Below, in pieces: positions 14,307 to 61,298 of a stretch of DNA of 64,000 nt. A model generated the notes under the pieces. That model was not told where the DNA came from, ran no database searches, and was given only the letters and a program-made list of their open reading frames with translations. Location of the stretch: contig DCUM01000204.1 in assembly GCA_002327255.1 (NCBI GenBank), forward strand, positions 781 through 64,780, in the 5' to 3' direction. Source of the DNA: a bacterium UBA2214 (lineage in GTDB: Bacteria; Zhuqueibacterota; Zhuqueibacteria; Residuimicrobiales; Residuimicrobiaceae). Numbering within the stretch: position 1 is the first letter of the stretch; each line of letters opens with the position of its first letter. Made by a program: the position numbers and the translations under genes.

Positions 14307-14375
14307 TCTCATTGAGAACGAAAAAAAAAGGCTGCCCGAAAAACAGGGCAGCCTTTTTCGATTAATGGGAGCCAG

Positions 14376-20773: not shown

Positions 20774-21688
20774 ATGCTGAGATGTTATCATATCTGCGAA
20801 GGCAAGATTCAGACCTGCAATGTTGCAGATGCGCAGATCCTGACCTATATCAACCCCGATGAATCCGAGAAGAAATACCTCACCGGCGATCTCAATCTCG
20901 ACGAGCACACGCTCAATTCCTGTCTTGACCCCGATGAACTGTCGCGTCTGGAATTTGAACCCGAACATGTCGCCATGATCTTCAAGCGGCCGCGCAATTA
21001 TCTGGTCGAGGACCGCTTTCTTTTCAGGGTCACCTCCATGGGCGCATTTGTATTTGCCGATAAAATCATTCTCGTCTCCTCCGAAGATGTGCCCATTTTT
21101 GATGACAAAAAGTTCACCAAGGTCACCAGTCTCAAGGATGTCATGCTCAAGATGCTCTTTCGTTCCATTTACCATTTTCTCGAGCATCTCAAGATCATCA
21201 ACATGATCACCAACGATCTGGAAGAGAAGATCAACTCCTCCATGGAAAACCGCTATCTCATCAGTCTCTTCTCCCTGGAAAAAAGTCTGGTCTATTACCT
21301 CAACGCCATCACCGCCAATTCGATCCTTTTGCAGCGCCTGAAAAACAATGGCAGCAAGATCGGCTTCATTCCCGATGAAGAGGATTTGCTCGACGACATC
21401 ATGATCGAGAATTCGCAATGTTACCGCCAGGCGGAAATCTATTCCAACATCTTGTCCGGCATGATGGATGCGCGCGCCTCCATCGTGAATAACAATATCA
21501 ACGTGCTCATGAAGACGCTCAACATCATCACCATCGGCATTATGGTCCCCACCTTTATTGTGAGCGCCTTTTCCATGAACGTCGGCATTCCGTTCCAAAA
21601 GCATCCGCAGGCTTTTTGGTTCGTTTTGGGCATCGCTCTGGTTTCGGTCTATGGATTTTACTGGATTTGGCGCTATAAAAAGTGGTGA
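20774..21688 (+). CDS. corA: CorA-family divalent cation transporter
   Basis: ORF 20759..21688 with GGGAG 7 nt before the ATG at 20774. There is a cytoplasmic N-domain and two C-terminal TM helices. The loop motif AFSMNVGIPF is a variant of GMN. Confidence 0.65.
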   Translation: MLRCYHICEGKIQTCNVADAQILTYINPDESEKKYLTGDLNLDEHTLNSCLDPDELSRLEFEPEHVAMIFKRPRNYLVEDRFLFRVTSMGAFVFADKIILVSSEDVPIFDDKKFTKVTSLKDVMLKMLFRSIYHFLEHLKIINMITNDLEEKINSSMENRYLISLFSLEKSLVYYLNAITANSILLQRLKNNGSKIGFIPDEEDLLDDIMIENSQCYRQAEIYSNILSGMMDARASIVNNNINVLMKTLNIITIGIMVPTFIVSAFSMNVGIPFQKHPQAFWFVLGIALVSVYGFYWIWRYKKW

Positions 21689-21741
21689 TTTTGCATACTT
21701 TTTCAGGTTCATGCATCTAATCATTAGGGATCGGATGACGC

Positions 21742-22626
21742 ATGGCAACTATTTCCAACATTCTCGTCGCCAGTGATTTTTCGCAGCCCGCCGAGGCCGC
21801 ACTGCAAAATGCCTTGCGCATTGCGAGAGGATCGGGCGCTTCGCTCACCCTCCTGCATGTGGCGACCATCTTTGAGGGCGATTTCTCTGGCGAAAGAATT
21901 GCAACCCTGAAATCACTTTATCAGCGTCTCGAGAAAAAAGCAGCGCTGGAGATTTCCAGCCATCTCGCGGGGATTGACAGCAAAGGCGTCACCCTTCATA
22001 CGGCCGTGCGCAGCGGTTTCAACGCCGCCGAGGAGATTCTCACCTTTATCAAAAAAAATCACATCGACCTGGTGGCACTGGGTTCTCAGGGCCGCAAGCC
22101 GCTGTCGGAATGGATTCTCGGCAGCGTGGCCGATAAAATCGTCAGAATGGCGCCCTGTCCCGTACTCACCGTGCGACAGACTGCTCAAAACCCGACTGAC
22201 AAAACCGGTTACGGCCACATCGTGGTTGCCACGGATTTTTCTCCCAACAGCCAAAAAGCGTTGCAGATGGCCAACACCCTCGCAAACCGTGAGGCCCGCA
22301 TCGATGTGATCCACGTTTTGGATGACAGTTTCCTGGCGCACTATGGCGCCTCCGGAATGGCAGCCTTGATGCCCGACCTGCAGCGCCGCGCCGCGGAGAC
22401 CCTCGAGCAGTTTGCAGCCCGGGGTTTGACGCCCGGGCGCAAAGGCCGCCGCATCCTCGAGATGGGCGCTGTTTCCGATAAAATACTCGAATATGCGCAG
22501 GGCAGTCATGCCGATCTCATCACCGTCGGGCAGCGCAGCCGGGTGACGGAGGAACCCATCATGCTGGGAAGCGTTTCGCAGCATCTGGTGCAGCGTTCAC
22601 GGCTGCCGGTTTTGGTGGTCAAATGA
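21742..22626 (+). CDS. Universal stress protein, tandem UspA domains
   Basis: Two repeats of the Usp fold: NILVASDFS...LHV and HIVVATDFS...HVL. Each has a C-terminal G-x2-G-x9-GS-like ATP-binding region. Confidence 0.75.
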   Translation: MATISNILVASDFSQPAEAALQNALRIARGSGASLTLLHVATIFEGDFSGERIATLKSLYQRLEKKAALEISSHLAGIDSKGVTLHTAVRSGFNAAEEILTFIKKNHIDLVALGSQGRKPLSEWILGSVADKIVRMAPCPVLTVRQTAQNPTDKTGYGHIVVATDFSPNSQKALQMANTLANREARIDVIHVLDDSFLAHYGASGMAALMPDLQRRAAETLEQFAARGLTPGRKGRRILEMGAVSDKILEYAQGSHADLITVGQRSRVTEEPIMLGSVSQHLVQRSRLPVLVVK

Positions 22627-22638
22627 GCTGAGGTTTAC

Positions 22639-22881
22639 ATGGTATGTGAAAAAATCATCGAGCAGATTTGTGCCGAATTGGCGGAAGACATCGATGTGGA
22701 GGTCTGTCAGAAGGTCAAAGCGCATCTGCTGACGTGCCCGGAATGCGCACAGCAGCTGCAAGCGATGCGCATGACCGTGCATCTCTACGCGCTGCTTGGA
22801 GAGCGCGAGGTGCCGCAAAAAATCCATGAACGATTGGCTCTGTTGCTCAACCTGCCCTGTGCGGAATCGGGAAAAAGGTGA
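22639..22881 (+). CDS. Small zf-HC2 (anti-sigma factor-type zinc finger) protein, orphan
   Basis: 80 aa with GAGG upstream of the ATG. H-x3-C-x2-C motif: AHLLTCPECAQQ. No ECF sigma gene is adjacent. Confidence 0.45.
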   Translation: MVCEKIIEQICAELAEDIDVEVCQKVKAHLLTCPECAQQLQAMRMTVHLYALLGEREVPQKIHERLALLLNLPCAESGKR

Positions 22882-22900
22882 ACAAAAGAGCACTTTATTC

Positions 22901-22929
22901 TTGACAGAGAGTGAAATTTTGCGTATACT
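22901..22929 (+). promoter_or_regulatory. Near-consensus sigma70 promoter of lexA operon (TTGACA-17-TATACT)
   Basis: TTGACA 22901-22906, 17-nt spacer, TATACT 22924-22929. It lies 41 nt upstream of the lexA ATG. Confidence 0.5.
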
Positions 22930-22931
22930 GA

Positions 22932-22951
22932 GGGTGAAAGGAATTTCACCC
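22932..22951 (+). promoter_or_regulatory. Perfect 8-4-8 palindrome GGGTGAAA-GGAA-TTTCACCC between -10 and RBS of lexA; candidate LexA operator (SOS box)
   Basis: Inverted repeat read directly from the sequence. A third GTGAAA half-site lies in the promoter spacer (22912-22917). Confidence 0.4.
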
Positions 22952-22969
22952 TTTTTTTATGGGAGGGTT

Positions 22970-23578
22970 ATGGAAAAGCTGTCACGAAAACAGGAGAAGG
23001 CACTGGCGTTGATCGCCAAACGCACCCGCGAGCAGGGGTATCCGCCGACGCTGGCGGAGTTGACCGAGGAACTCGGGGCGGCCTCGAAAAACACCGCGGT
23101 CAAGTACCTGCGCATCCTCTCGCGCAAGGGCTATATCGTCTGGGAACGCAACAAGGCGCGGGGGATTCAGCTGACCGCCGATGCCGGCGGGGGCGAGGTG
23201 GGACTGCCGCTGATCGGCGCGGTGGCGGCCGGCGCGCCGTTGCTGGCCGAACAGAATATCGAACGCTATGTGACGGTGCCTTCCTGCTTGCTCCAGGCCA
23301 GTGCGCCGCATTTTCTCCTGCGCGTCGCCGGCCAGAGCATGCTCCAGGCCGGCATCCTGCCCGACGATCTCGTGGTGGTACGGGCGCAACCGCATGCGGC
23401 CGTGGGCGAAGTGGTGGTCGCCCTGATCGACGGGGAAGCCACGGTGAAACGGCTGGCGCAGAGCGCCGACCGCCTCTTTCTCAAGGCGGAAAATCCGGAA
23501 TTTGCCGACATCCACCCGCAAGGGGAGTGGTCGATTCAGGGCAAGGTGGTGGCGCTGATCCGCGAAGCGGTGGTGTGA
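22970..23578 (+). CDS. lexA: LexA repressor
   Basis: Internal Met of ORF 22796..23578 with a GGGAGGG RBS. N-terminal wHTH: MEKLSRKQEKALALIAKRTREQGYPPTLAELTEELG. C-terminal S24 peptidase: VAGQSMLQAGIL (Ser) and GKVVALIR (Lys). Confidence 0.85.
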   Translation: MEKLSRKQEKALALIAKRTREQGYPPTLAELTEELGAASKNTAVKYLRILSRKGYIVWERNKARGIQLTADAGGGEVGLPLIGAVAAGAPLLAEQNIERYVTVPSCLLQASAPHFLLRVAGQSMLQAGILPDDLVVVRAQPHAAVGEVVVALIDGEATVKRLAQSADRLFLKAENPEFADIHPQGEWSIQGKVVALIREAVV

Positions 23579-23854
23579 CAGGCGCCTGCAGCTCGACGCG
23601 TCTCGTCGACCTGCAGAACGGCGCTGTCCGGCTGTGCCTGCGATTTCGGCATTCTTCATTAAATGCAACGCGCTCGTCGATCGGCATGACAGCGCTGTCC
23701 TTAGGTGAAACGGCTTCTCAACGCGGCGGCGAAACGGCAGGAAATGGAGTATACCGATACCAAATCTCCTTGGCGAACTGTCGCAAAAGGGGCTGCCGAT
23801 CAGAAAGAAGACCATCCCCCGGCGCAAGGCGCGAAAAAGGGTGGAAGGGGAAAG

Positions 23855-23882
23855 GAAGAGAGAAGAGAGAAGAGAGAAGAGA
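23855..23882 (+). repeat. Tandem heptamer repeat (GAAGAGA)x4 within a ~60-bp polypurine tract upstream of imuB
   Basis: gaagaga gaagaga gaagaga gaagaga with degenerate flanks ggaagggg aaag and gaatgga gaagagg. The tract spans 23842..23899. Confidence 0.9.
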
Positions 23883-23962
23883 GAATGGAGAAGAGGGAAA
23901 AGGCCCCGGGTTCTGCCGCGCCTCTTACAGCAAACAGGGTGATTTCTTTGGACGGAAACTTT

Positions 23963-25126
23963 ATGTCGCGCACGATTTTGCATATCGACGTCAACGATTT
24001 TCCCGTGGCCGTGGAACGGGTGCTGGAGCCGCGCCTGCGGCAACGCCCCGTGGCCGTGGCGGTGGAGAGCGCCAGCCGCGCCCTCGTCGCCGCGCGTTCG
24101 CGCGAAGCGGCCGCCAACGGCGTGCAGCGCGGCATGCCCCTGCACCAGGCCCTGAAATACTGCCCGGATCTGACCGTGCTGCCCCCCAACGAAGCGCTCT
24201 ATCACCGCGCCACAACCGCGCTGCTGCACCTCCTCGGTCAGTTCACGCCCGTCATCGAACCGCTGCGCTTCGGCCACGCCTACCTCGACCTCACCGGCTC
24301 CGGCCGCCTCTTCGGCAACGGCGTCGATGCCGCCGCCCGCGCCCAGCGCGAAATCCGCGACCGCCTCCGCCTCGACGCCGTCGCCGGCGTCGCCAGCAAC
24401 AAACTGGTCAGCAAGGTCGCCTCCGATGTCATCACCGTCCGGAACCCGCAAACCGCCCTCTGCGACGTCCACTACGGCGAGGAACAACGCTTCCTCGCGC
24501 CGCTGCCGGTGGGCTATCTGCCCGGCGTGCAGAAAACCATCCGCGCCCAACTGACCGAACTCAACATCCACCGCATCCGGGAACTGGCGGGGATCAAATC
24601 CGAACACCTGCAGATGGTCTTCGGCCGCTTCGGCCTGCTGCTCTTCCAGCGCGCCCGCGGCATCGACGAGCGCCCGGTGATGCCGCCCCGGCGCAGCCCG
24701 GAGATCGTCGAAACCGTCGAACTGGCCGACGACGGCAACGACTATGAAGCGTTGCGCCGCCTGACCTTCGCGCTGCTCGCCCGCGCCACCCGCCGCCTGC
24801 GCCGCGACCGCCTCTTCACCCGGCACCTGGGGGTGGAAATCCTCTATGGCGATCACCGCCGCGACACGGCGCAGACCCGCACCGCCGCAGCGCAAACCGA
24901 CGCCGATCTCCTCGCCGTCGCCGAAACAACTTTGGGAAAGGCCCTGGCGCGGCGCGTGCGCGTACGCAAAATCACCCTGCGCCTCGGCGGCCTCGGCCCG
25001 GCCAGCGGCCAGCTCGGACTCTTTGCCGCCACCGAAAATCCCAAATATGCCGCGCTCACCGGCGCCATGGACAAAATCCGCGACCGCTTCGGCGATGCCG
25101 CCATCCGCTTCGGGTATGCCGCCTGA
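23963..25126 (+). CDS. imuB: ImuB, catalytically inactive Y-family DNA polymerase paralogue of the SOS mutagenesis cassette
   Basis: Starts MSRTILHIDVNDFPVAVE, aligning with DinB MRKIIHVDMDCFFAAVE but with the second Asp replaced by Asn. The SLDEAYLD catalytic DE position reads RFGHAYLD. Catalytic carboxylates are therefore lost, as is typical of ImuB. It sits between lexA and dnaE2. Confidence 0.75.
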   Translation: MSRTILHIDVNDFPVAVERVLEPRLRQRPVAVAVESASRALVAARSREAAANGVQRGMPLHQALKYCPDLTVLPPNEALYHRATTALLHLLGQFTPVIEPLRFGHAYLDLTGSGRLFGNGVDAAARAQREIRDRLRLDAVAGVASNKLVSKVASDVITVRNPQTALCDVHYGEEQRFLAPLPVGYLPGVQKTIRAQLTELNIHRIRELAGIKSEHLQMVFGRFGLLLFQRARGIDERPVMPPRRSPEIVETVELADDGNDYEALRRLTFALLARATRRLRRDRLFTRHLGVEILYGDHRRDTAQTRTAAAQTDADLLAVAETTLGKALARRVRVRKITLRLGGLGPASGQLGLFAATENPKYAALTGAMDKIRDRFGDAAIRFGYAA

Positions 25127-25246
25127 AACGGCGACAGGAGGGCGGCAATCCGGTGCGCCGGACAGCCCCGCAATGCAACGGAACGCCTGCAGAAAAAAGT
25201 TGATCTTTACCAAAATTATGCTAAATTGCTCCCTGGAGGCGCGACC

Positions 25247-26122
25247 ATGATCATCTCCGCCAGCCGCCGCACCGACATCCCGCGCTATTACGCCAAGTGG
25301 TTCATCCGCCGCGTGCGCGCCGGCCACTGCACCGTGCCCAATCCCTTCAATCCCGGACAGGTGCGCCGCGTCGACCTGCGCCCCGAAGCTGTCACCGCCC
25401 TGGTGTTCTGGACGCGGTTTCCAAAGCTGTTAATGCCCTATATACCGGAACTTGAACACAGGAAATTAAAGTTTTACTTTCAATATACCATCACGCGTTA
25501 TCCCGATCGGTATGAACCCGGCGCACCGCCCGCGGAGGAGGCGATCGCCTGCTTTCGTTCCCTGGCCCGGCTGTTGGGCCCGGGACGCATGATCTGGCGC
25601 TACGACCCGATTTTTTTCACGGATGAATGTGATCCGGACGATCATCTGCAGAACTTTGCACGCCTGTGCGCGCAGTTGCAGGGCTGCACCCGCAAGGTGG
25701 TGATCAGTTTTCTCGATGAATACCGCCGCACGCGGAGCCGGATGCGCGCGGCGGGCGTGGCTTATCCGGGCGATCCCCTGCAACATCCGGGTCTGAAGCC
25801 CCTGCTGCAGGCCATGGTGGAGATCGCCGCGCATCATCACCTGGGCATCGAATCGTGCGCCGAACCCGAATGGCTGCAATCGTATGGCATTGCCACAGGC
25901 CGCTGCATCGATGAGCGATTGCTGCAATCCGAATTCGGGGTAAGAGTGGCCTATAAAAAGGATCCGGGACAGCGTCCCCTGTGCGGCTGCATGCCGAGCA
26001 GGGACATTGGCAGCAACAATACCTGTCCGGCCGGCTGCCTGTACTGCTATGCCACCCCAAATCCTGCTCAGGCGCAAGAACGCTTTTGCCGCCATGACGT
26101 GAAGGCGGAATCTCTCATTTAA
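25247..26122 (+). CDS. DUF1848-family protein (putative Fe-S protein) embedded in SOS cassette
   Basis: GGAGG 8 nt before the ATG. N-terminal MIISASRRTDIPRYYAKWF resembles the DUF1848 signature ISASRRTDIPAFY. C-terminal CPAGCLYC is a CxxxCxxC motif. Confidence 0.55.
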   Translation: MIISASRRTDIPRYYAKWFIRRVRAGHCTVPNPFNPGQVRRVDLRPEAVTALVFWTRFPKLLMPYIPELEHRKLKFYFQYTITRYPDRYEPGAPPAEEAIACFRSLARLLGPGRMIWRYDPIFFTDECDPDDHLQNFARLCAQLQGCTRKVVISFLDEYRRTRSRMRAAGVAYPGDPLQHPGLKPLLQAMVEIAAHHHLGIESCAEPEWLQSYGIATGRCIDERLLQSEFGVRVAYKKDPGQRPLCGCMPSRDIGSNNTCPAGCLYCYATPNPAQAQERFCRHDVKAESLI

Positions 26123-26151
26123 TCCATTGGCCTCGAAAGGGAGTAACCACT

Positions 26152-27321
26152 ATGTCGAACGTGAAGATTATTCAATTTTCCAACAAAACCGCCCAGGATC
26201 GCCGTCTCTTGAAAGTATTCGTCGATTTTCACTGGAAACACTATGAGCACGATCCGCAGTACATCCCCCTGCTCGATTATGAGTATCTCGGATTCAAACT
26301 CCTCGGCATGACCGGTTTTTTTGAACCCGGCAATCTGTTCTTCAAGCATGGGGAAATGGTTTTTTTTCTGGCCCAGTGCGGCGATCACATCGTCGGCTGC
26401 TGCAACGCCTTTGTCAATCATAATCACAACAAACACTGGAATGACAAGGTCGGCTTCTTCGGCCAGTTCGAAACCATCGATGACCAGGAGGTCGCTGAAG
26501 CGCTGTTGAACGCCGCAGCCACCTGGCTGAGAAGCAAAGGCATGACCGCCATGCGCGGCCCGCAGAATCTGCCGGTCAACGAAGCCACCCCGGGGTGTCT
26601 GGTGGAGGGGTTCGACACCCGCCCCGTGGTCTATTATCATTACAACAAGCCCTATTATGAAAAGATTTTGCAAGCTTATCAGATGCAGGTGGTCAAACGC
26701 GTCAAATCCTGGGAAGTGCCCGTGGACCGGCCCATGGAGGAGAAGCTGGGGCGCGTCGGCAAAAAGGTGATGGAGCACTATGGCGTGCGCGTCGAAAACT
26801 GGGGAGAGCGGCCGTTGCCGGTGCGCAAGGAGGAGATGCTGCAGGTCTACAATGAGGCCTGGAATGACAACTGGGGCTATGTGCCCTTCACCCGGGAAGA
26901 GTTTTGCAAAAACATCGACGATATGCAACTGATCATGGAAAAAGGTCTCTTTATCTTTGTCTATGTCAAGGATGAATTGGCCGCTTTTTTTGGCGGCGTG
27001 CCGAATATTTTTGAACGCATGCAGCCGCTCTCCTGGTGCCGCCGTTGTGAATTTGTCCGCGCGGCGCGCATGCTGCTGTCCAGACACAAGATAAGAGGGT
27101 TCCGGCTCGGCTACATGGGCGTCCGGCCCAAATTCCGCCGGCTCGGCCTCGACGGCGTCATGTTGTGGCAGCAAAAGATCTTTGCGCAGCAGAAGGGTTA
27201 CGACTATAGCGATCTCGGCTGGGTGCTGGAAGATAATGTGCTGATCATACGCGTCGTCGAAATGATGCAGGACGTCAGGCTCTCCAAAGTCTATGCCATT
27301 TTTCAAAAAGAGCTTGTCTGA
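26152..27321 (+). CDS. Hypothetical protein, probable GNAT/FemAB-like acyltransferase fold, embedded in SOS cassette
   Basis: 389 aa with GGGAG RBS. It has two halves with an acyl-CoA N-acyltransferase-like pattern. No specific family is recognised with certainty. Confidence 0.45.
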   Translation: MSNVKIIQFSNKTAQDRRLLKVFVDFHWKHYEHDPQYIPLLDYEYLGFKLLGMTGFFEPGNLFFKHGEMVFFLAQCGDHIVGCCNAFVNHNHNKHWNDKVGFFGQFETIDDQEVAEALLNAAATWLRSKGMTAMRGPQNLPVNEATPGCLVEGFDTRPVVYYHYNKPYYEKILQAYQMQVVKRVKSWEVPVDRPMEEKLGRVGKKVMEHYGVRVENWGERPLPVRKEEMLQVYNEAWNDNWGYVPFTREEFCKNIDDMQLIMEKGLFIFVYVKDELAAFFGGVPNIFERMQPLSWCRRCEFVRAARMLLSRHKIRGFRLGYMGVRPKFRRLGLDGVMLWQQKIFAQQKGYDYSDLGWVLEDNVLIIRVVEMMQDVRLSKVYAIFQKELV

Positions 27322-27329
27322 GCGCTGCG

Positions 27330-30300
27330 ATGTCCCCGGCAGGAGCTCCCGGTGGTTTTGTCCACCTGCATGTTCACTCCCATTACAGTCTGTGCCGGGG
27401 CGCCAATACCATCGCGGATATCTGCCGCCGCGCCCGCGACATCGGCCTTTCTCATCTCGCCCTGACCGATACCAACGGCATCTACGGACTGGTGTGGTTT
27501 CTCCAGGAGGCGCGCGCGCAGGGTATCCAGCCCCTCATCGGCGCCTTTCTGCAGCACCAATCCAACCACGCGGTGATGCTGGCGAAAAATCGCGCCGGCT
27601 ACCGCACGCTGTGCCGCACCCTGACCGCCCTGCACGGGGATGACCCTTTCGACCTCATCACCTGGCTGCAGCGCAACCGGGAGCAGACCATCCTCTTCAG
27701 CGACGATCTCCAGCTGCTCACCGCCCTGACGGATTCCGGCGTGCGCGATGATCTCTACGCCGAGCTCATTCCGCACCGGCAACGCCACAAAATCCTGCAA
27801 TTCGCACGCGAAAGGCATCTTCCGCCGCTGGCGAGCCAGGGCGCCTATTTTCTCGACCGCGCCGATTATGCGGTGCATCGCCTCCTGCGCGCCATCGATC
27901 TGAACACCACGCTGACCCGTATTCCGGAGGCAGAACTGGCCGCGCCGCAGGCCTGTATGGCGACGCCGCGGGAGATGCAGCACTTTTTCCCGGATTGCCC
28001 GGAAGCCATCGAGAATACCCGCAAGATCGCCGCAGCATGCGCTTTCGATCTCGATTTCGGCGGCGCTATTTTTCCCTCTTTCAGCGGTCCGGATGGGGAG
28101 GATGCACAGACTTGTCTTCAGGATCAGGTCGAAAAAGGCGCCCTGTGGCGTTACGACGCCATCACACCTCCGGTTCAACAACGCATGGTGTATGAACTGG
28201 ATCTCATCAACCGCAAGGGATTCGCGCCCTATTTTCTGGTCGTCGCCGACGCCGTGCGCCAGGCGCCGCGCACCTGCGGACGCGGATCCGCGGCCGCCAG
28301 TCTGGTGAGCTATTGCCTCGGCATCACCCATGTCGATCCCATCAAATACGATCTTTTTTTCGAACGCTTTCTCAATCCGGGGCGCATCGATCCACCGGAT
28401 ATCGATGTCGATTTTCCCTGGGATGAGCGCGACGATATCATTGATTACCTCTTTCGCAAATATGGCCGGTCGTGCGTGGCCATGATCGCCAACCACAACG
28501 GCTTCAAGGCGCGCTCTGCCGTGCGTGAAATCGCCAAAGTGTATGGCCTCCCGGATCGCGAAATAGGCCTCATCACCAAAAAGCTGACCAGTTATTGGCA
28601 GCCCGGCAATCTTGAGGAAGTGATCGCCACCCATCCGGTTTTCCACGGCACGGAATTGCGTCCGCCGTGGCCCGAAATTTTGCAGATGGCAGATAAAATC
28701 CGCGGTTTTCCACGGCATCTTTCCATTCACTGCGGCGGCGTCGTCATCGCCCCGGATGGACTCGATCACTATTGTGCCGTGCAACCGGCCAAAAAGATAC
28801 TTCAACCTGCCGGCGTTCTCTCCCGCGGCGACACGGGGCTGCCGCGGGCGCTCGAGCATGTGCAAGTGGTACACTGGGAGAAAGACCAGTCGGAAGAGAT
28901 GGGTCTGGTGAAAATGGACATCCTCGGCAACCGCTCCCTGGCCGTCATCCGCGATGCACGCCGTGCGGTGCTGGACAACTATGGCGTGGAACTGGACTTC
29001 AACCGCATCAATCCCCAGGAAGATGAAGCGACCCGGGCGTTGCTGGCGCGCGGCGACACCATCGGCGTCTTTTATGTGGAATCACCCGCCATGCGGCAGT
29101 TGCAACGCAAGACCGGCAAAGGCGACTTTGAACATCTGGTCATTCACAGCTCCATCATCCGGCCGGCCGCGGCGGTCTTCATTCAGGAATACGTCCGCCG
29201 TTTGCGCGGCGGCGCCTGGACCCCCCTGCATCCGGCTGTGGAGGAGTTGCTCCGGGAAACCTATGGTATCATGGTCTATCAGGAGGACGTCTCGAAAGTC
29301 GCCATCGCTTTGGCCGATTTTGATGCATCCGGCGCCGACGAACTGCGCAAGATCGTCACCAAGAAAAACAAACATCGCCAGTTGGCTGATTATAAGGAGC
29401 GTTTTTTTTGCGGCGCCATGAAAAAAGGCGCCGACGCGGAGATGTGCGAAAAAATATGGGCGATGATCCTGAGTTTCGCCGAATACAGTTTTTGCAAGCC
29501 ACATTCGGCCTCCTTTGCGCTGGTCTCCTGCCAGTCGGCCTATTTGCGCGTTCATTATCCGGCCGAGTTCATCGCCGCGGTGATCAGCAATCAGGGCGGT
29601 TATTATTCGACCTTTGCGTATGTGTCGGAAGCGCGGCGCATGGGACTGGAAGTCCTGGCGCCGGACATCAACCAGAGTCTGCAGAAATACACGGGCGTGG
29701 AGCGTCAGGTGCGCGTGGGATTGATGCAATTGAAGGGATTGTCGCAGCACGCCCTTGAAACCGTGCTGGCGGAGAGAGAAAAAAACGGGCCCTTTGCTTC
29801 TTTTTGCGATTTTTTGTCCCGCGTCACTTTGGATGCGACGGATATTGCTATCTTTATAAAGGCGGGATGCTTTGATATCCTCGAATCGGGACAAACCCGG
29901 CCGCAACTGGTATGGCATCTGCATGGGTGGCAGGCGCAGAAAAAAGCGTTATCCACTCCCGGCGCCACCCTTTCTCTCTTTGAGGCAGACACCCGAACAC
30001 CGCAGGGACTTCCCGCTCCACCCGCCTATTGTGCCGAGCAAGTGTGGCGGATGGAAGAAGAAATTCTCGGATTTCTGCTGTCGCAGCATCCGCTGATGCT
30101 GTATACGGCCAAAATTCAGCGCATCCCGCATGTCCGGGGTTGTGATTTGCAGCGGCATATCGGCAAACGGGTTCATACCATCGGCTGGCTCATCACCGCC
30201 AAGGTGGTCAGCACCCGGAATAAAGACCTCATGGAATTCGTCAGTTTTGAAGACACGACGGCCATCTATGAGACCACTTTTTTCCCAAAAGCGTATGCCC

Positions 30301-30407
30301 GCTTCGCGCAGCGGATGAGCAACGATCGTCCCTTTCTGTTACAGGGCACAGTCGATGAACAATTTGGCGCCGTCTATCTGAATGTCGAAGAGATGAACTA
30401 TTTGTGA
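27330..30407 (+). CDS. dnaE2: Error-prone DNA polymerase DnaE2 (ImuC), Pol III alpha paralogue
   Basis: 1025 aa, a DnaE2-typical size. PHP domain HLHVHSHYSLCRGA. Catalytic FPDIDVDF. Finger GRGSAAASLVSYCLGITHVDP. It is the last gene of the lexA-imuB operon. Confidence 0.85.
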   Translation: MSPAGAPGGFVHLHVHSHYSLCRGANTIADICRRARDIGLSHLALTDTNGIYGLVWFLQEARAQGIQPLIGAFLQHQSNHAVMLAKNRAGYRTLCRTLTALHGDDPFDLITWLQRNREQTILFSDDLQLLTALTDSGVRDDLYAELIPHRQRHKILQFARERHLPPLASQGAYFLDRADYAVHRLLRAIDLNTTLTRIPEAELAAPQACMATPREMQHFFPDCPEAIENTRKIAAACAFDLDFGGAIFPSFSGPDGEDAQTCLQDQVEKGALWRYDAITPPVQQRMVYELDLINRKGFAPYFLVVADAVRQAPRTCGRGSAAASLVSYCLGITHVDPIKYDLFFERFLNPGRIDPPDIDVDFPWDERDDIIDYLFRKYGRSCVAMIANHNGFKARSAVREIAKVYGLPDREIGLITKKLTSYWQPGNLEEVIATHPVFHGTELRPPWPEILQMADKIRGFPRHLSIHCGGVVIAPDGLDHYCAVQPAKKILQPAGVLSRGDTGLPRALEHVQVVHWEKDQSEEMGLVKMDILGNRSLAVIRDARRAVLDNYGVELDFNRINPQEDEATRALLARGDTIGVFYVESPAMRQLQRKTGKGDFEHLVIHSSIIRPAAAVFIQEYVRRLRGGAWTPLHPAVEELLRETYGIMVYQEDVSKVAIALADFDASGADELRKIVTKKNKHRQLADYKERFFCGAMKKGADAEMCEKIWAMILSFAEYSFCKPHSASFALVSCQSAYLRVHYPAEFIAAVISNQGGYYSTFAYVSEARRMGLEVLAPDINQSLQKYTGVERQVRVGLMQLKGLSQHALETVLAEREKNGPFASFCDFLSRVTLDATDIAIFIKAGCFDILESGQTRPQLVWHLHGWQAQKKALSTPGATLSLFEADTRTPQGLPAPPAYCAEQVWRMEEEILGFLLSQHPLMLYTAKIQRIPHVRGCDLQRHIGKRVHTIGWLITAKVVSTRNKDLMEFVSFEDTTAIYETTFFPKAYARFAQRMSNDRPFLLQGTVDEQFGAVYLNVEEMNYL

Positions 30408-30436: not shown

Positions 30437-31519
30437 TTGAATACGAGTACGCCCTGTACAATCCCCGTTGAGATGACAGAGGAACAGATGCACAACCTAT
30501 CCCTACAGCGTTTCATTAAAGAACTGCCCAAAGTGGAATTGCATCTCCATCTGGAAGGCGCCATCCGTCCCGAGACGGCTCTGAATTTGATGCGCCGCAA
30601 CCGTTCGGCCCCTTTGCCTGAAAACAGCGAACAGGTCAGGGCGTTATACCGTTTTGAGGATCTCTCCCAGTTTGTCCTCGCCATGCGTGCGGTCTCCAAT
30701 CATATCCGCTCTCTGGAAGATTTGCAAAATATCACGCAGGAAATGCTCAGCGATCTCATTGCGCAACACACCTTCTATGTCGAATTTGATTGTGCCCTGC
30801 AAAAATATATCGATCTGGGCTACCCCCTGGTGGAGATTCTCGAGGCGCTCCATGCGACGACGCAGGCCTTCCGGGAGCAGATTCATGCCCGCCTCATCGT
30901 CAATTTGCAGCGTTCCCATGGTTCTGACAAAACGGCCGCGCTGGTCGAGGAAGTAGCCCGCCTCAATCATCCCCTGGTCGCCGGGATCGGATTATCGGGG
31001 GATGAATCCAGATTTCCGCAAAAATGGTTTGTGCGCGCCTTTGCGGTGGCCCGGGAGGCGGGCCTGAAGCGTACCGTGCACGCCGGTGAAGCCCTCGGTC
31101 CGGAGAGCATCCGGGAGGCGCTCGACCTCCTGCATGCCCAGCGCATCGATCACGGCACGCAGGCCCATAAAGACGCGCATCTGCTGGAGCGTCTGAAAGC
31201 GGAGGGCATCCCCCTGACCCAGTGCATCAGCAGCAATGTGCGCTTGCATATCGTCGATCGCATCGAGGATCATCCCTTTGTGGATTACCTGCGCGGGGGT
31301 CTGGTGACGGCCTTGCACACGGATGATCCACAGGTCTTTGGCATCTCATTGACATCAGAGTATGAACTGGCCGCCACAACCTTCGACCTCTCCCGTGAGG
31401 AAATCGTACAAATTCTGTTGAATGGCATCCAGGGTTCATTTATGCCCGATCGCATTCGCCACAGCCTGATCGGCCAATTCAAGGCCCTTTACGCCGATCA
31501 ACACACCCTTTCAGCGTGA
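30437..31519 (+). CDS. add: Adenosine deaminase
   Basis: PKVELHLHLEGAIRPET, TVHAGEALG (HAGE motif), ALHTDDPQVFGISL. Confidence 0.8.
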   Translation: MNTSTPCTIPVEMTEEQMHNLSLQRFIKELPKVELHLHLEGAIRPETALNLMRRNRSAPLPENSEQVRALYRFEDLSQFVLAMRAVSNHIRSLEDLQNITQEMLSDLIAQHTFYVEFDCALQKYIDLGYPLVEILEALHATTQAFREQIHARLIVNLQRSHGSDKTAALVEEVARLNHPLVAGIGLSGDESRFPQKWFVRAFAVAREAGLKRTVHAGEALGPESIREALDLLHAQRIDHGTQAHKDAHLLERLKAEGIPLTQCISSNVRLHIVDRIEDHPFVDYLRGGLVTALHTDDPQVFGISLTSEYELAATTFDLSREEIVQILLNGIQGSFMPDRIRHSLIGQFKALYADQHTLSA

Positions 31520-52066: not shown

Positions 52067-52101
52067 AGGCCCGCTGATCCTATCAGCGGGCCTTTTTATT
52101 T
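52067..52101 (+). terminator. Intrinsic terminator / attenuator between his leader peptide and hisG
   Basis: AGGCCCGCTGAT-cct-ATCAGCGGGCCT 12-bp stem followed by TTTTTATTT. hisG starts 23 nt downstream. Confidence 0.65.
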
Positions 52102-57749: not shown

Positions 57750-58508
57750 ATGCTCGCCAGAAGGATCATCCCGTGTCTGGACGTCAAGGAAGGGCGCGTG
57801 GTCAAAGGAACCCAATTTGTCAATTTGCGCGATGCCGGCGATCCGGTTGAGCAAGCGCGTTTTTATGACGAGCAGGGGGCTGACGAACTTGTTTTTTTGG
57901 ATATCACGGCATCCGCAGAATACCGTGATATCATCTATGATGTAGTAGCGCATACCGCTGAGCAGGTTTTCATGCCGCTGACGGTCGGCGGCGGCATTCG
58001 CACGGTGGCGGATGCCCGTAAATTGCTGCAGAGTGGTGCCGATAAAATCGCCATCAACACAGCGGCGCTGCAGGAGCCGGAACTGGTCGCTGCGTGCGCG
58101 CGTCAGTTCGGCAGTCAAGCGGTCGTCGTGGCCATCGATGCGCGCCGGATATCGGCCGGGAGGTGGCAAGTCTTTATTCATGGAGGTCGCACCGCCATGG
58201 ATGTGGATGCGGTACAATGGGCACTCGAGGCAGAGCACAGAGGCGCCGGTGAAATTCTTCTCACCTCGATGGATCGCGACGGTACCAGGGATGGTTACGA
58301 TATAGATCTCACGCGCGCCATCAGCACCCGCGTCAACATCCCTGTGATTGCTTCGGGGGGCTGCGGCGAGGCCGCCCATTTTTTTGATGTCTTTGAAAAT
58401 GGCAAAGCCGACGCCGCATTGGCTGCATCGGTCTTCCATTACCGGCACAACAGCATCGCCGAAATCAAGAACTATCTCAAGGAGAGAGGCATCCATGTCC
58501 GAATATGA
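57750..58508 (+). CDS. hisF: Imidazole glycerol phosphate synthase cyclase subunit
   Basis: [32 protein letters not shown]. Confidence 0.85.
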
Positions 58509-61196: not shown

Positions 61197-61252
61197 TTTT
61201 TTAGCGATTTTTCTTGCATAGTTCATTATTTTTTTATATATTATCACGCTGA

Positions 61253-61282
61253 AGTGGGTCCATCTGACCCACTTTTTTGTTG
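61253..61282 (+). terminator. Rho-independent terminator (AGTGGGTC-catct-GACCCACT + TTTTTTGTTGTT)
   Basis: Stem-loop plus T-run, 57 nt after the YfgM-like stop and 17 nt before rimP. Confidence 0.55.
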
Positions 61283-61298
61283 TTATAGGGTTCATTCT

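Follow-up and report, generated by a model that had tools for sequence, protein, structure and literature searches.

LexA is unusual among global regulators in that its binding motif has changed repeatedly, and each new motif helps to reconstruct how regulons have been rewired. To our knowledge, autoregulation through a dyad at the lexA promoter is a general rule for the family. In Geobacter, lexA is followed by dinB, a Pol IV-type gene, and the LexA proteins are not known to bind recA; the box of Geobacter sulfurreducens was reportedly written at first as GGTTN2CN4GN3ACC. A LexA can also be linked to a cassette, as in the lexA-imuA-imuB-dnaE2 mutagenesis cassette, for which LexA2 of Pseudomonas putida is an example. 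The experimentally defined LexA box of Geobacter is quoted as GGTT-N10-AACC in PMC8565304, and 17 LexA motifs were known by a count made in 2021 (PMC8565304). Within the FCB group, the closest relative in print is the motif of the Balneolaeota, which is a different direct repeat (PMC7739468). Variation of the LexA motif is an established theme, to which the present study adds a comparative sequence prediction for one operon.

Here we analysed a stretch of DNA of 64 kb, referred to as the window throughout, in which a perfect palindrome lies at the start of a lexA gene, and compared it with orthologous loci of KSB1-type genomes. We propose, with a probability of roughly 0.6, that this palindrome is the autoregulatory LexA operator of the KSB1 lineage, with the core GGTGA-N8-TCACC (O1) and an auxiliary box (O2), and that it would serve at the same time as a terminator of the upstream gene. 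The features of the locus are listed in Table 1.

Table 1. Features at and around the lexA promoter, in positions of the window
Feature	Positions	Strand	Basis or remark
zf-HC2 (anti-sigma-like) gene, 80 aa	22639-22881	+	Pfam zf-HC2; weak RsrA-type match
O2, distal degenerate box GGTGAACAAAAGAGCACT (GGTG-N10-CACT)	22877-22894		Ends 6 nt before the -35 hexamer
-35 hexamer TTGACA	22901-22906	+	Sequence; TTGAC invariant in the nine-sequence alignment and also in L179-L181
GTGAAA in the promoter spacer	22911-22916	+	Direct copy; also in L179, nowhere else among the 12 promoters
-10 hexamer TATACT	22924-22929	+	TAT..T invariant in relatives; 17-nt spacer in all
Hairpin plus U7, intrinsic-terminator-like	22930-22958	+	Terminator scan; 10 pairs, 4-nt loop, T7
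Perfect palindrome GGGTGAAAGGAATTTCACCC	22932-22951		After 'ga' 3' of the -10 hexamer
O1, proposed LexA operator core GGTGA-AAGGAATT-TCACC	22933-22950		Exact form 2-4 nt past the -10 hexamer in relatives
T7 run	22952-22958		Directly 3' of the palindrome
Shine-Dalgarno sequence GGGAGGG	22961-22967	+	GGAGG before the ATG in short-leader relatives
lexA, 202 aa	22970-23578	+	ATG at 22970; Pfam PF01726 (LexA_DNA_bind) and PF00717 (Peptidase_S24)
Pol IV-like Y-family polymerase	23963-25126	+	Pfam IMS, IMS_C, IMS_HHH_1
DUF1848 protein	25226-26122	+	Pfam PF08902, 2e-92
389-aa protein	26152-27321	+	Conserved beside the DnaE-family polymerase
DnaE-family polymerase, 1025 aa, DnaE2-like in size	27330-30407	+	Pfam PHP, DNA_pol3_alpha, finger, HHH_6

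The original prediction had described a TTGACA-17-TATACT promoter followed at once by a perfect 8-4-8 palindrome that overlaps the start site, and the sequence does read this way. The promoter agrees with the consensus at 11 of 12 positions and was the best promoter-like site in a 5-kb scan (21500-26500), while the inverted repeat, GGGTGAAA-GGAA-TTTCACCC, extends to a 9-4-9 form by a further A...T pair (22931-22952). O1 begins 3 nt past the -10 hexamer and overlaps the predicted +1 (~22936). The T7 run, which makes the sequence a canonical intrinsic terminator, went unmentioned in the original prediction. Perfect 8-4-8 palindromes number four in the window versus 1.3 expected from dinucleotide shuffles (maximum 4), so that chance could account for the palindrome taken by itself, and its significance must rest on its position and on its conservation in relatives. 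The search pattern that had been suggested, GTGAAA-N4-6-TTTCAC, gave no useful excess across the window at up to three mismatches; its N4 form has the true spacing of the site, whereas its N6 form misses it.

The gene downstream was rightly taken to be lexA. Its product carries both of the expected Pfam domains and exceeds the cut-off of the TIGR00498 equivalog model (190.8 bits versus 110.95), it can be aligned over its full length with structures of E. coli LexA, and its Ala-Gly cleavage site and catalytic Ser and Lys are invariant across 36 relatives. A genuine LexA is expected to have a winged HTH and an S24 domain besides these residues, and the repressor has them all; among named LexA proteins, those nearest to it belong to candidate division KSB1. 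Its recognition helix has the sequence SKNTAVKY versus SPNAAEEH in E. coli, and these differences, which include positions that we take to be base-contacting in the E. coli LexA-DNA structure, fit a changed specificity.

In the window, lexA heads a cluster of same-strand genes with short gaps, in which it is followed by the genes of the Pol IV-like protein, the DUF1848 protein, the 389-aa protein and the DnaE-family polymerase and then by that of an adenosine deaminase; lexA and the Pol IV-like gene are probably co-transcribed. The NCBIfam models for Pol IV match the Pol IV-like protein at 1e-61, yet below their cut-offs, and for the DnaE-family polymerase the models of the error-prone polymerase and of Pol III alpha both give matches, again below their cut-offs. 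The 389-aa protein has no match in Pfam or NCBIfam; counterparts of 386-394 aa are present in L086, L091, L094, L176, L179 and L180, and a Pol IV-like gene follows lexA in the same loci and in L081. Outside the lexA cluster, no SOS genes were found in the 64-kb window. On the upstream side, a zf-HC2 gene lies directly 5' of lexA in 11 of the 12 loci compared, and the co-directional genes found there are those of CorA, a universal stress protein (Usp) and zf-HC2. The remaining locus, L181, lacks both a zf-HC2 gene and polymerase genes, and its upstream gene is divergent.

The evidence that carries our proposal is the comparison of 12 distinct orthologous lexA promoters from KSB1-type genomes (the window, L081, L086, L091, L176, L179, L001, L093, L177, L180, L094 and L181), whose LexA proteins are 57-100% identical to that of the window. 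As these promoters represent about five clades, the independent observations number fewer than 12. Large scans of genome contigs and of metagenome contigs for LexA brought one close relative each among the matches listed (L001, L096), and a scan of viral contigs for a KSB1-like LexA found none. According to the alignments, the blocks TTGAC, TAT..T, GGTG and TCACC, and no others, are invariant in the promoter, and the spacer and the 8-bp centre of the palindrome vary. The conserved element is GGTGA-N8-TCACC, exact in 10 of the 12 promoters; L094 has one mismatch (GGTGT-N8-TCACC), and in L180 the arms stand N7 apart. In all 12, O1 starts 2-4 nt past the -10 hexamer, at a distance from the ATG that ranges from 35 to 255 nt, and it is retained despite changes in leader length, gene context, inner stem and T-run. 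The outer GGTG/CACC pairs show no variation in any of the 12, with a fourth base that is always G and a partner that is always C, and the inner AAA/TTT of the window is replaced by ATC/GGT, ATT/GAT, ACG/TGT, ACA/ATT or TCA/GTT in relatives.

The position of O1 is the classic one for autorepression, as had been claimed, and the phylogenetic footprinting suggested at the time bears out the palindrome at this very place in all 12 orthologous promoters. The half-site itself needs to be redrawn, since the conserved part is the outer GGTGA/TCACC and not GTGAAA, of which the AAA (and the TTT of the other arm) varies. What had been viewed as a third, direct GTGAAA half-site occurs in two of the 12 promoters, within a spacer that is not conserved, and is probably due to chance.

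In 260 kb of KSB1 loci, exact GGTGA-N8-TCACC sequences number 11, against 0.26 expected from shuffles, and 10 of these are located at lexA promoters. The eleventh, at 58248 of the window, lies inside hisF, where it encodes GAGEILLTS, and was set aside as a chance match. In two promoters the sequence is conserved although the structure is not: L181 has an exact box at the unchanged position despite a stem of 5-6 bp, a missing T-run and a different gene context, and in L094 it is kept with four complementary outer pairs only and no T-run. Position at the promoter and half-sites conserved at a fixed spacing across orthologous promoters of genomes with similar LexA recognition helices are among the features by which an SOS box is recognised, and O1 is, on this comparative evidence, a plausible lineage-specific LexA box. 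In L178, whose LexA is 52% identical to that of the window, no such box was found in 20 kb, and lexA is located 19 nt after a small gene.

The palindrome can also be read at the level of RNA. A G+C-containing stem-loop, followed by a T-run, is present after a co-directional gene, which is the sequence signature of a Rho-independent terminator; the hairpin lies 49 nt past the zf-HC2 stop codon, and zf-HC2 transcripts would meet both the hairpin and the T7 run. The window hairpin has a folding energy of -13.7 to -15.5 kcal/mol (z = -2.8), and other parts of the window contain similarly built terminators of the ordinary kind. Ten of the 12 promoters, all of them among the 11 that have a co-directional upstream gene, carry the T-run. 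It is missing in L094 and in L181, the sole promoter without such a gene, and its loss in L181, a single case, fits an operator-plus-terminator model. In addition, compensatory changes and changes of the G.U type are seen at flanking and inner positions of the stem, so that pairing, too, is under selection, and the N7 spacing of L180, where hairpin and T-run are kept, is easier to reconcile with a structural element in RNA than with a rigid dimer site.

Such observations would suit an explanation in which the palindrome is purely the intrinsic terminator of the CorA/Usp/zf-HC2 genes, textbook in its form, with a lexA promoter that merely overlaps it and a LexA that binds elsewhere or does not act here. 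We consider this unlikely, as GGTG/CACC is fixed in 12 of 12 promoters next to an unconserved spacer, whereas stems normally drift at such divergence, and as the motif is kept in L181 and L094 without a usable hairpin or T-run. Moreover, the box is fixed relative to the -10 hexamer and not to the stop codon, which lies ~78 nt before the box in L093 and 51 nt before it in the window, and a pure terminator would leave O2, a copy that forms no hairpin, unaccounted for. We favour instead a LexA operator whose palindrome, judging from its sequence, is probably also a stop signal for the transcripts of the upstream gene.

Alternatively, the hairpin might belong to the lexA mRNA itself, either as an attenuator or as a 5' stabilising stem-loop, in which case the transcript would begin no later than 22931 and the hairpin, formed at its 5' end, would either terminate most transcripts at the U-run or protect the message from 5'-end-dependent decay. 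The hairpin is stable, with -10 to -14 kcal/mol across the promoters, the U-run is conserved, and pairing is kept through G.U wobbles in L001 and L093. However, a usual start at the seventh nucleotide past the -10 hexamer omits the left arm and leaves only 0 to -4 kcal/mol in every promoter, no conserved antiterminator pairing was detected, and Rfam gave no family match in 22600-23000 at E <= 1. Taken together with the invariance of the sequence itself and the exceptions L181 and L094, which also speak against it, this makes a role in the lexA leader very improbable.

A further element that sets the LexA operator reading apart is O2, the box upstream of the -35 hexamer, which the original prediction did not include. 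With a PWM made from the first nine O1 sites, O2 is the second-best match in the whole 64-kb window (21.2; the next match scores 10.0), and GGTG-N10-CA(C/A)T, abbreviated CAMT at its right end, is found in 10 of the 12 promoters, 53-56 bp 5' of O1, with 4-6 nt between it and the -35 hexamer. Depending on the locus, the stop codon of the upstream gene falls within O2, shortly ahead of it or at a distance of more than 20 nt, and since O2 is kept whatever the position or frame of this codon, coding constraint is not the explanation. O2 does not form a hairpin, nor is it involved in any RNA pairing that is conserved. The idea that O2 pairs with the right arm of O1 as an antiterminator was rejected, as no conserved pairing of this kind was found.

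O2 and the T-run co-occur perfectly among the 12 promoters, a pattern that is confounded by phylogeny, and both are seen only where the zf-HC2 gene adjoins. This would be expected if the palindrome were the operator of a DNA-binding protein other than LexA, such as a regulator linked to the conserved zf-HC2 gene or to an ECF-like promoter upstream, and it would agree with such a regulator that no independent SOS gene carrying the box was found. L181, however, keeps O1 without a zf-HC2 gene, LexA is the sole DNA-binding regulator encoded in the operon, the architecture of the box is that of a known LexA box, and autoregulation through a dyad at such a position follows the family rule mentioned above. 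We regard the operator of another protein as the least probable of the explanations weighed here.

For a regulon beyond lexA, the limited evidence is negative: no box was found at up to two mismatches at the stand-alone Pol IV and DUF1848 genes of L093, nor at the Pol IV, DUF1848 and dnaE-family genes of L176. In the cluster, genes of these three kinds are located 3' of lexA and could be transcribed from the lexA promoter. Autoregulation is not refuted by these boxless genes or by L178, but 'SOS box' is a provisional label. Two sets of partial matches were discarded, namely weak matches in the gap between lexA and the Pol IV gene of L176, which belong to 125-bp tandem repeats, and GGTGA at the CorA stop codon (L001 2475, L093 9371, window 21686-21688), which represents a Trp-stop codon pair.

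In the LexA operator model that we favour, a LexA dimer on O1 would cover the predicted start of a sigma-70-type promoter, and given that O1 lies immediately past the -10 hexamer and over this start, bound LexA would be expected to block open-complex formation or promoter escape. O2, the weaker box just 5' of the -35 hexamer, probably recruits a further LexA dimer. The promoter repressed in this manner appears to drive a translesion/mutagenesis cluster composed of lexA and the Pol IV-like, DUF1848, 389-aa and DnaE-family genes, and it would be freed upon DNA damage through self-cleavage of LexA, for which the Ala-Gly, Ser and Lys positions are present. In RNA, the palindrome and the T7 run would terminate transcripts of the CorA/Usp/zf-HC2 genes and thereby shield the mutagenesis cluster from read-through, while lexA transcripts would begin inside the left arm, so that their hairpin could not form and the terminator would be skipped. 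An overlap of operator and terminator that is skipped by the regulated promoter's own transcripts would be a compact design. Going one step further, we speculate, as a tentative and rather doubtful extension, that the locus is dual-use in a stricter sense: a LexA site for which no earlier description was found, with its auxiliary GGTG-N10-CAMT box, would lie over the +1, and the same site would act in RNA as the terminator of a stress operon that has an ECF-like promoter and includes the anti-sigma-like gene, so that the error-prone polymerases would be expressed via LexA cleavage alone and at no time through read-through.

In the literature searched, GGTGA-N8-TCACC was not found described as a LexA recognition sequence, and no SOS system of KSB1 was found described, as none of the papers in the library searched connects LexA with KSB1 or Calditrichaeota. 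If the proposal is true, SOS regulons could be predicted in metagenome-assembled genomes of the KSB1 phylum.

How the locus relates to known systems differs from case to case. With E. coli lexA, which has two CTGT-N8-ACAG sites, it shares the presence of two boxes, an A/T-rich N8 centre and an operator over the transcription start, and the two repressors have the same domain layout and cleavage residues. However, the KSB1 half-site is a different one, the KSB1 boxes flank the promoter 56 bp apart whereas those of E. coli lie side by side, and the KSB1 operator is followed by a T-run and is hence terminator-like. The gene order resembles that of the lexA-imuA-imuB-dnaE2 cassette, in that lexA comes first and is followed by Y-family and DnaE-family polymerases, apparently under one operator, whereas Pol IV-like, DUF1848 and 389-aa proteins take the place of imuA/imuB. 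As L181 has the same LexA and the same operator without the cassette, the KSB1 LexA does not seem to be merely a cassette regulator.

The likeness to the Geobacter box, in the form quoted in PMC8565304, is closer. Each is a palindrome of 18 bp in which 10 bp separate the outer tetranucleotides, the two have the outermost GGT...ACC and hence three of four outer bases in common, and each is found at the promoter of a lexA that is followed by a Pol IV-type gene. The original prediction had placed the site outside the listed LexA motifs, which stands, but it is not unrelated to known boxes, given that it agrees with the Geobacter box in length, in symmetry and in all but one of the four outer bases. 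On the other hand, the fourth base in KSB1 is G and not T (GGTG/CACC versus GGTT/AACC), so that the half-sites are not the same, the fifth base (A/T) is conserved in KSB1 as well, and the inner C-N4-G of Geobacter is not. The two lineages, KSB1 and Desulfuromonadota, are unrelated, and the likeness is one known from the box sequence.

The Gram-positive Cheo box (GAAC-N4-GTTC) has the same centre of symmetry, and the conserved GA...TC of KSB1 coincides with the first two bases of GAAC and the last two of GTTC. The inner AC/GT, however, is free in KSB1 (AAA, ATC, ACG, ACA, TCA), and conservation is shifted outward to GGTGA/TCACC; in place of the Cheo core, the window has GAAA-N4-TTTC and its relatives have GATC/GGTC, GACG/TGTC, GACA/ATTC or GTCA/GTTC. 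A similar frame is encountered with a core of the GTAC type, known from the cyanobacterial RGTAC box, as the GGTG-TAC-N4-GTA-CACC of Calditrichales and Nitrospirae contains GTAC-N4-GTAC. The Calditrichales chromosome L002 (LexA 46% identical) carries GGTGTACTATTGTATATT, with GGTGTAC-N4-GTATATT, right after the -10 hexamer of lexA, and a perfect GTGTACATAAGTACAC, with GTGTAC-N4-GTACAC, ahead of a small ORF and dinB. In the Nitrospirae MAG L068, an exact GGTG-N10-CACC box, GGTGTACAAATGTACACC, overlaps the lexA promoter, exact copies are also present over the lexA promoters of L009 (directly past the -10 hexamer) and L064 (inside the spacer), and versions with one mismatch occur in L004 and L078. 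Given these GTAC/GAAC-N4-GTAC/GTTC cores within the GGTG...CACC frame of relatives, the KSB1 box looks derived, with its specificity moved outward. If our reading is true, the KSB1 box would represent an evolutionary intermediate that is still framed like the Cheo and Geobacter boxes but has its specificity in the outer GGTGA/TCACC.

Apart from O1, the GGTGA-N8-TCACC element proposed as the LexA operator at the lexA promoter, the window holds a single exact match to this sequence, at 58248-58265 inside hisF, where it encodes GAGEILLTS; this match is a coding coincidence. At the RNA level, O1 and the T-run that follows it can also be read as a terminator-like hairpin, and three other hairpins of the window (Table) show canonical intrinsic terminators of similar build to be in use in this genome. 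The T-run after O1 and O2, the degenerate box distal to O1, occur together in all ten promoters other than those of L094 and L181, the two most divergent promoters, which lack both elements. This co-occurrence may reflect either a functional link or common ancestry.

Downstream of lexA, the gap preceding the Pol IV-like gene contains the palindromes CTGCAG...CTGCAG and GACAGCGCTGTC as well as a purine-rich (GAGAA)n tract, and in locus L176 (9290-9520) it extends to 1 kb, with 125-bp tandem repeats bearing G5/C5 palindromes. In both cases the contents look like repeat or mobile-element insertions within the operon. Further into the cassette, counterparts of the 389-aa protein (386-394 aa) occupy the equivalent position in L086, L091, L094, L176, L179 and L180, and within the mutagenesis cassette this protein may be a partner not yet characterised. 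Adenosine deaminase, likewise found 3' of the DnaE-family polymerase gene in L091, L094 and L176, is a conserved neighbour with no obvious link to the cassette.

On the Calditrichales chromosome L002, a perfect GTGTAC-N4-GTACAC precedes a small ORF and dinB, a half-degenerate copy lies 3' of the lexA -10, and a 153-aa ORF with only an S24 domain (UmuD-like) directly follows lexA. This palindrome is a likely SOS box of Calditrichota.

Table. Coordinates of features in the window and in other loci
Feature	Sequence	Coordinates	Remarks
ECF-like motif	window	21692-21721	just 3' of CorA stop, ahead of Usp or zf-HC2 genes
ECF-like motif	L001	2480-2520	
ECF-like motif	L093	9380-9410	
ECF-like motif	L177	9570-9600	
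zf-HC2 gene	window	22639-22881	directly upstream of lexA; anti-sigma-like, weak RsrA-type match
lexA-Pol IV gap	window	23579-23962	long, about 384 nt
389-aa protein	window	26152-27321	adjoins DnaE-family polymerase; no match in Pfam or NCBIfam
Adenosine deaminase gene	window	30437-31519	after DnaE-family polymerase
G+C-rich hairpins, then T-runs	window	14330-14360, 52069-52100, 61252-61285	ordinary build
Features described in the text	L002	2955-2972, 3669-4130, 5034-5049, 5284-6537	

An anti-sigma-like zf-HC2 gene of 75-83 aa immediately precedes lexA in 11 of the 12 KSB1-type loci compared (the window, L081, L086, L091, L093, L094, L176, L177, L178, L179 and L180), being absent only from L181. 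Because merely 19 nt separate the two genes in L178, they probably share a transcript there. Farther upstream, the conserved motif TG(A/C)ATAC-N14-GCATCTAAT is located shortly past the CorA stop and ahead of the Usp or zf-HC2 genes (Table); in L094 and L179 it is found upstream of the small gene. RNA started at this motif would meet the O1 hairpin and T-run. With its GAAC-type -35 and TCTAA-type -10, the motif resembles an ECF-sigma promoter.
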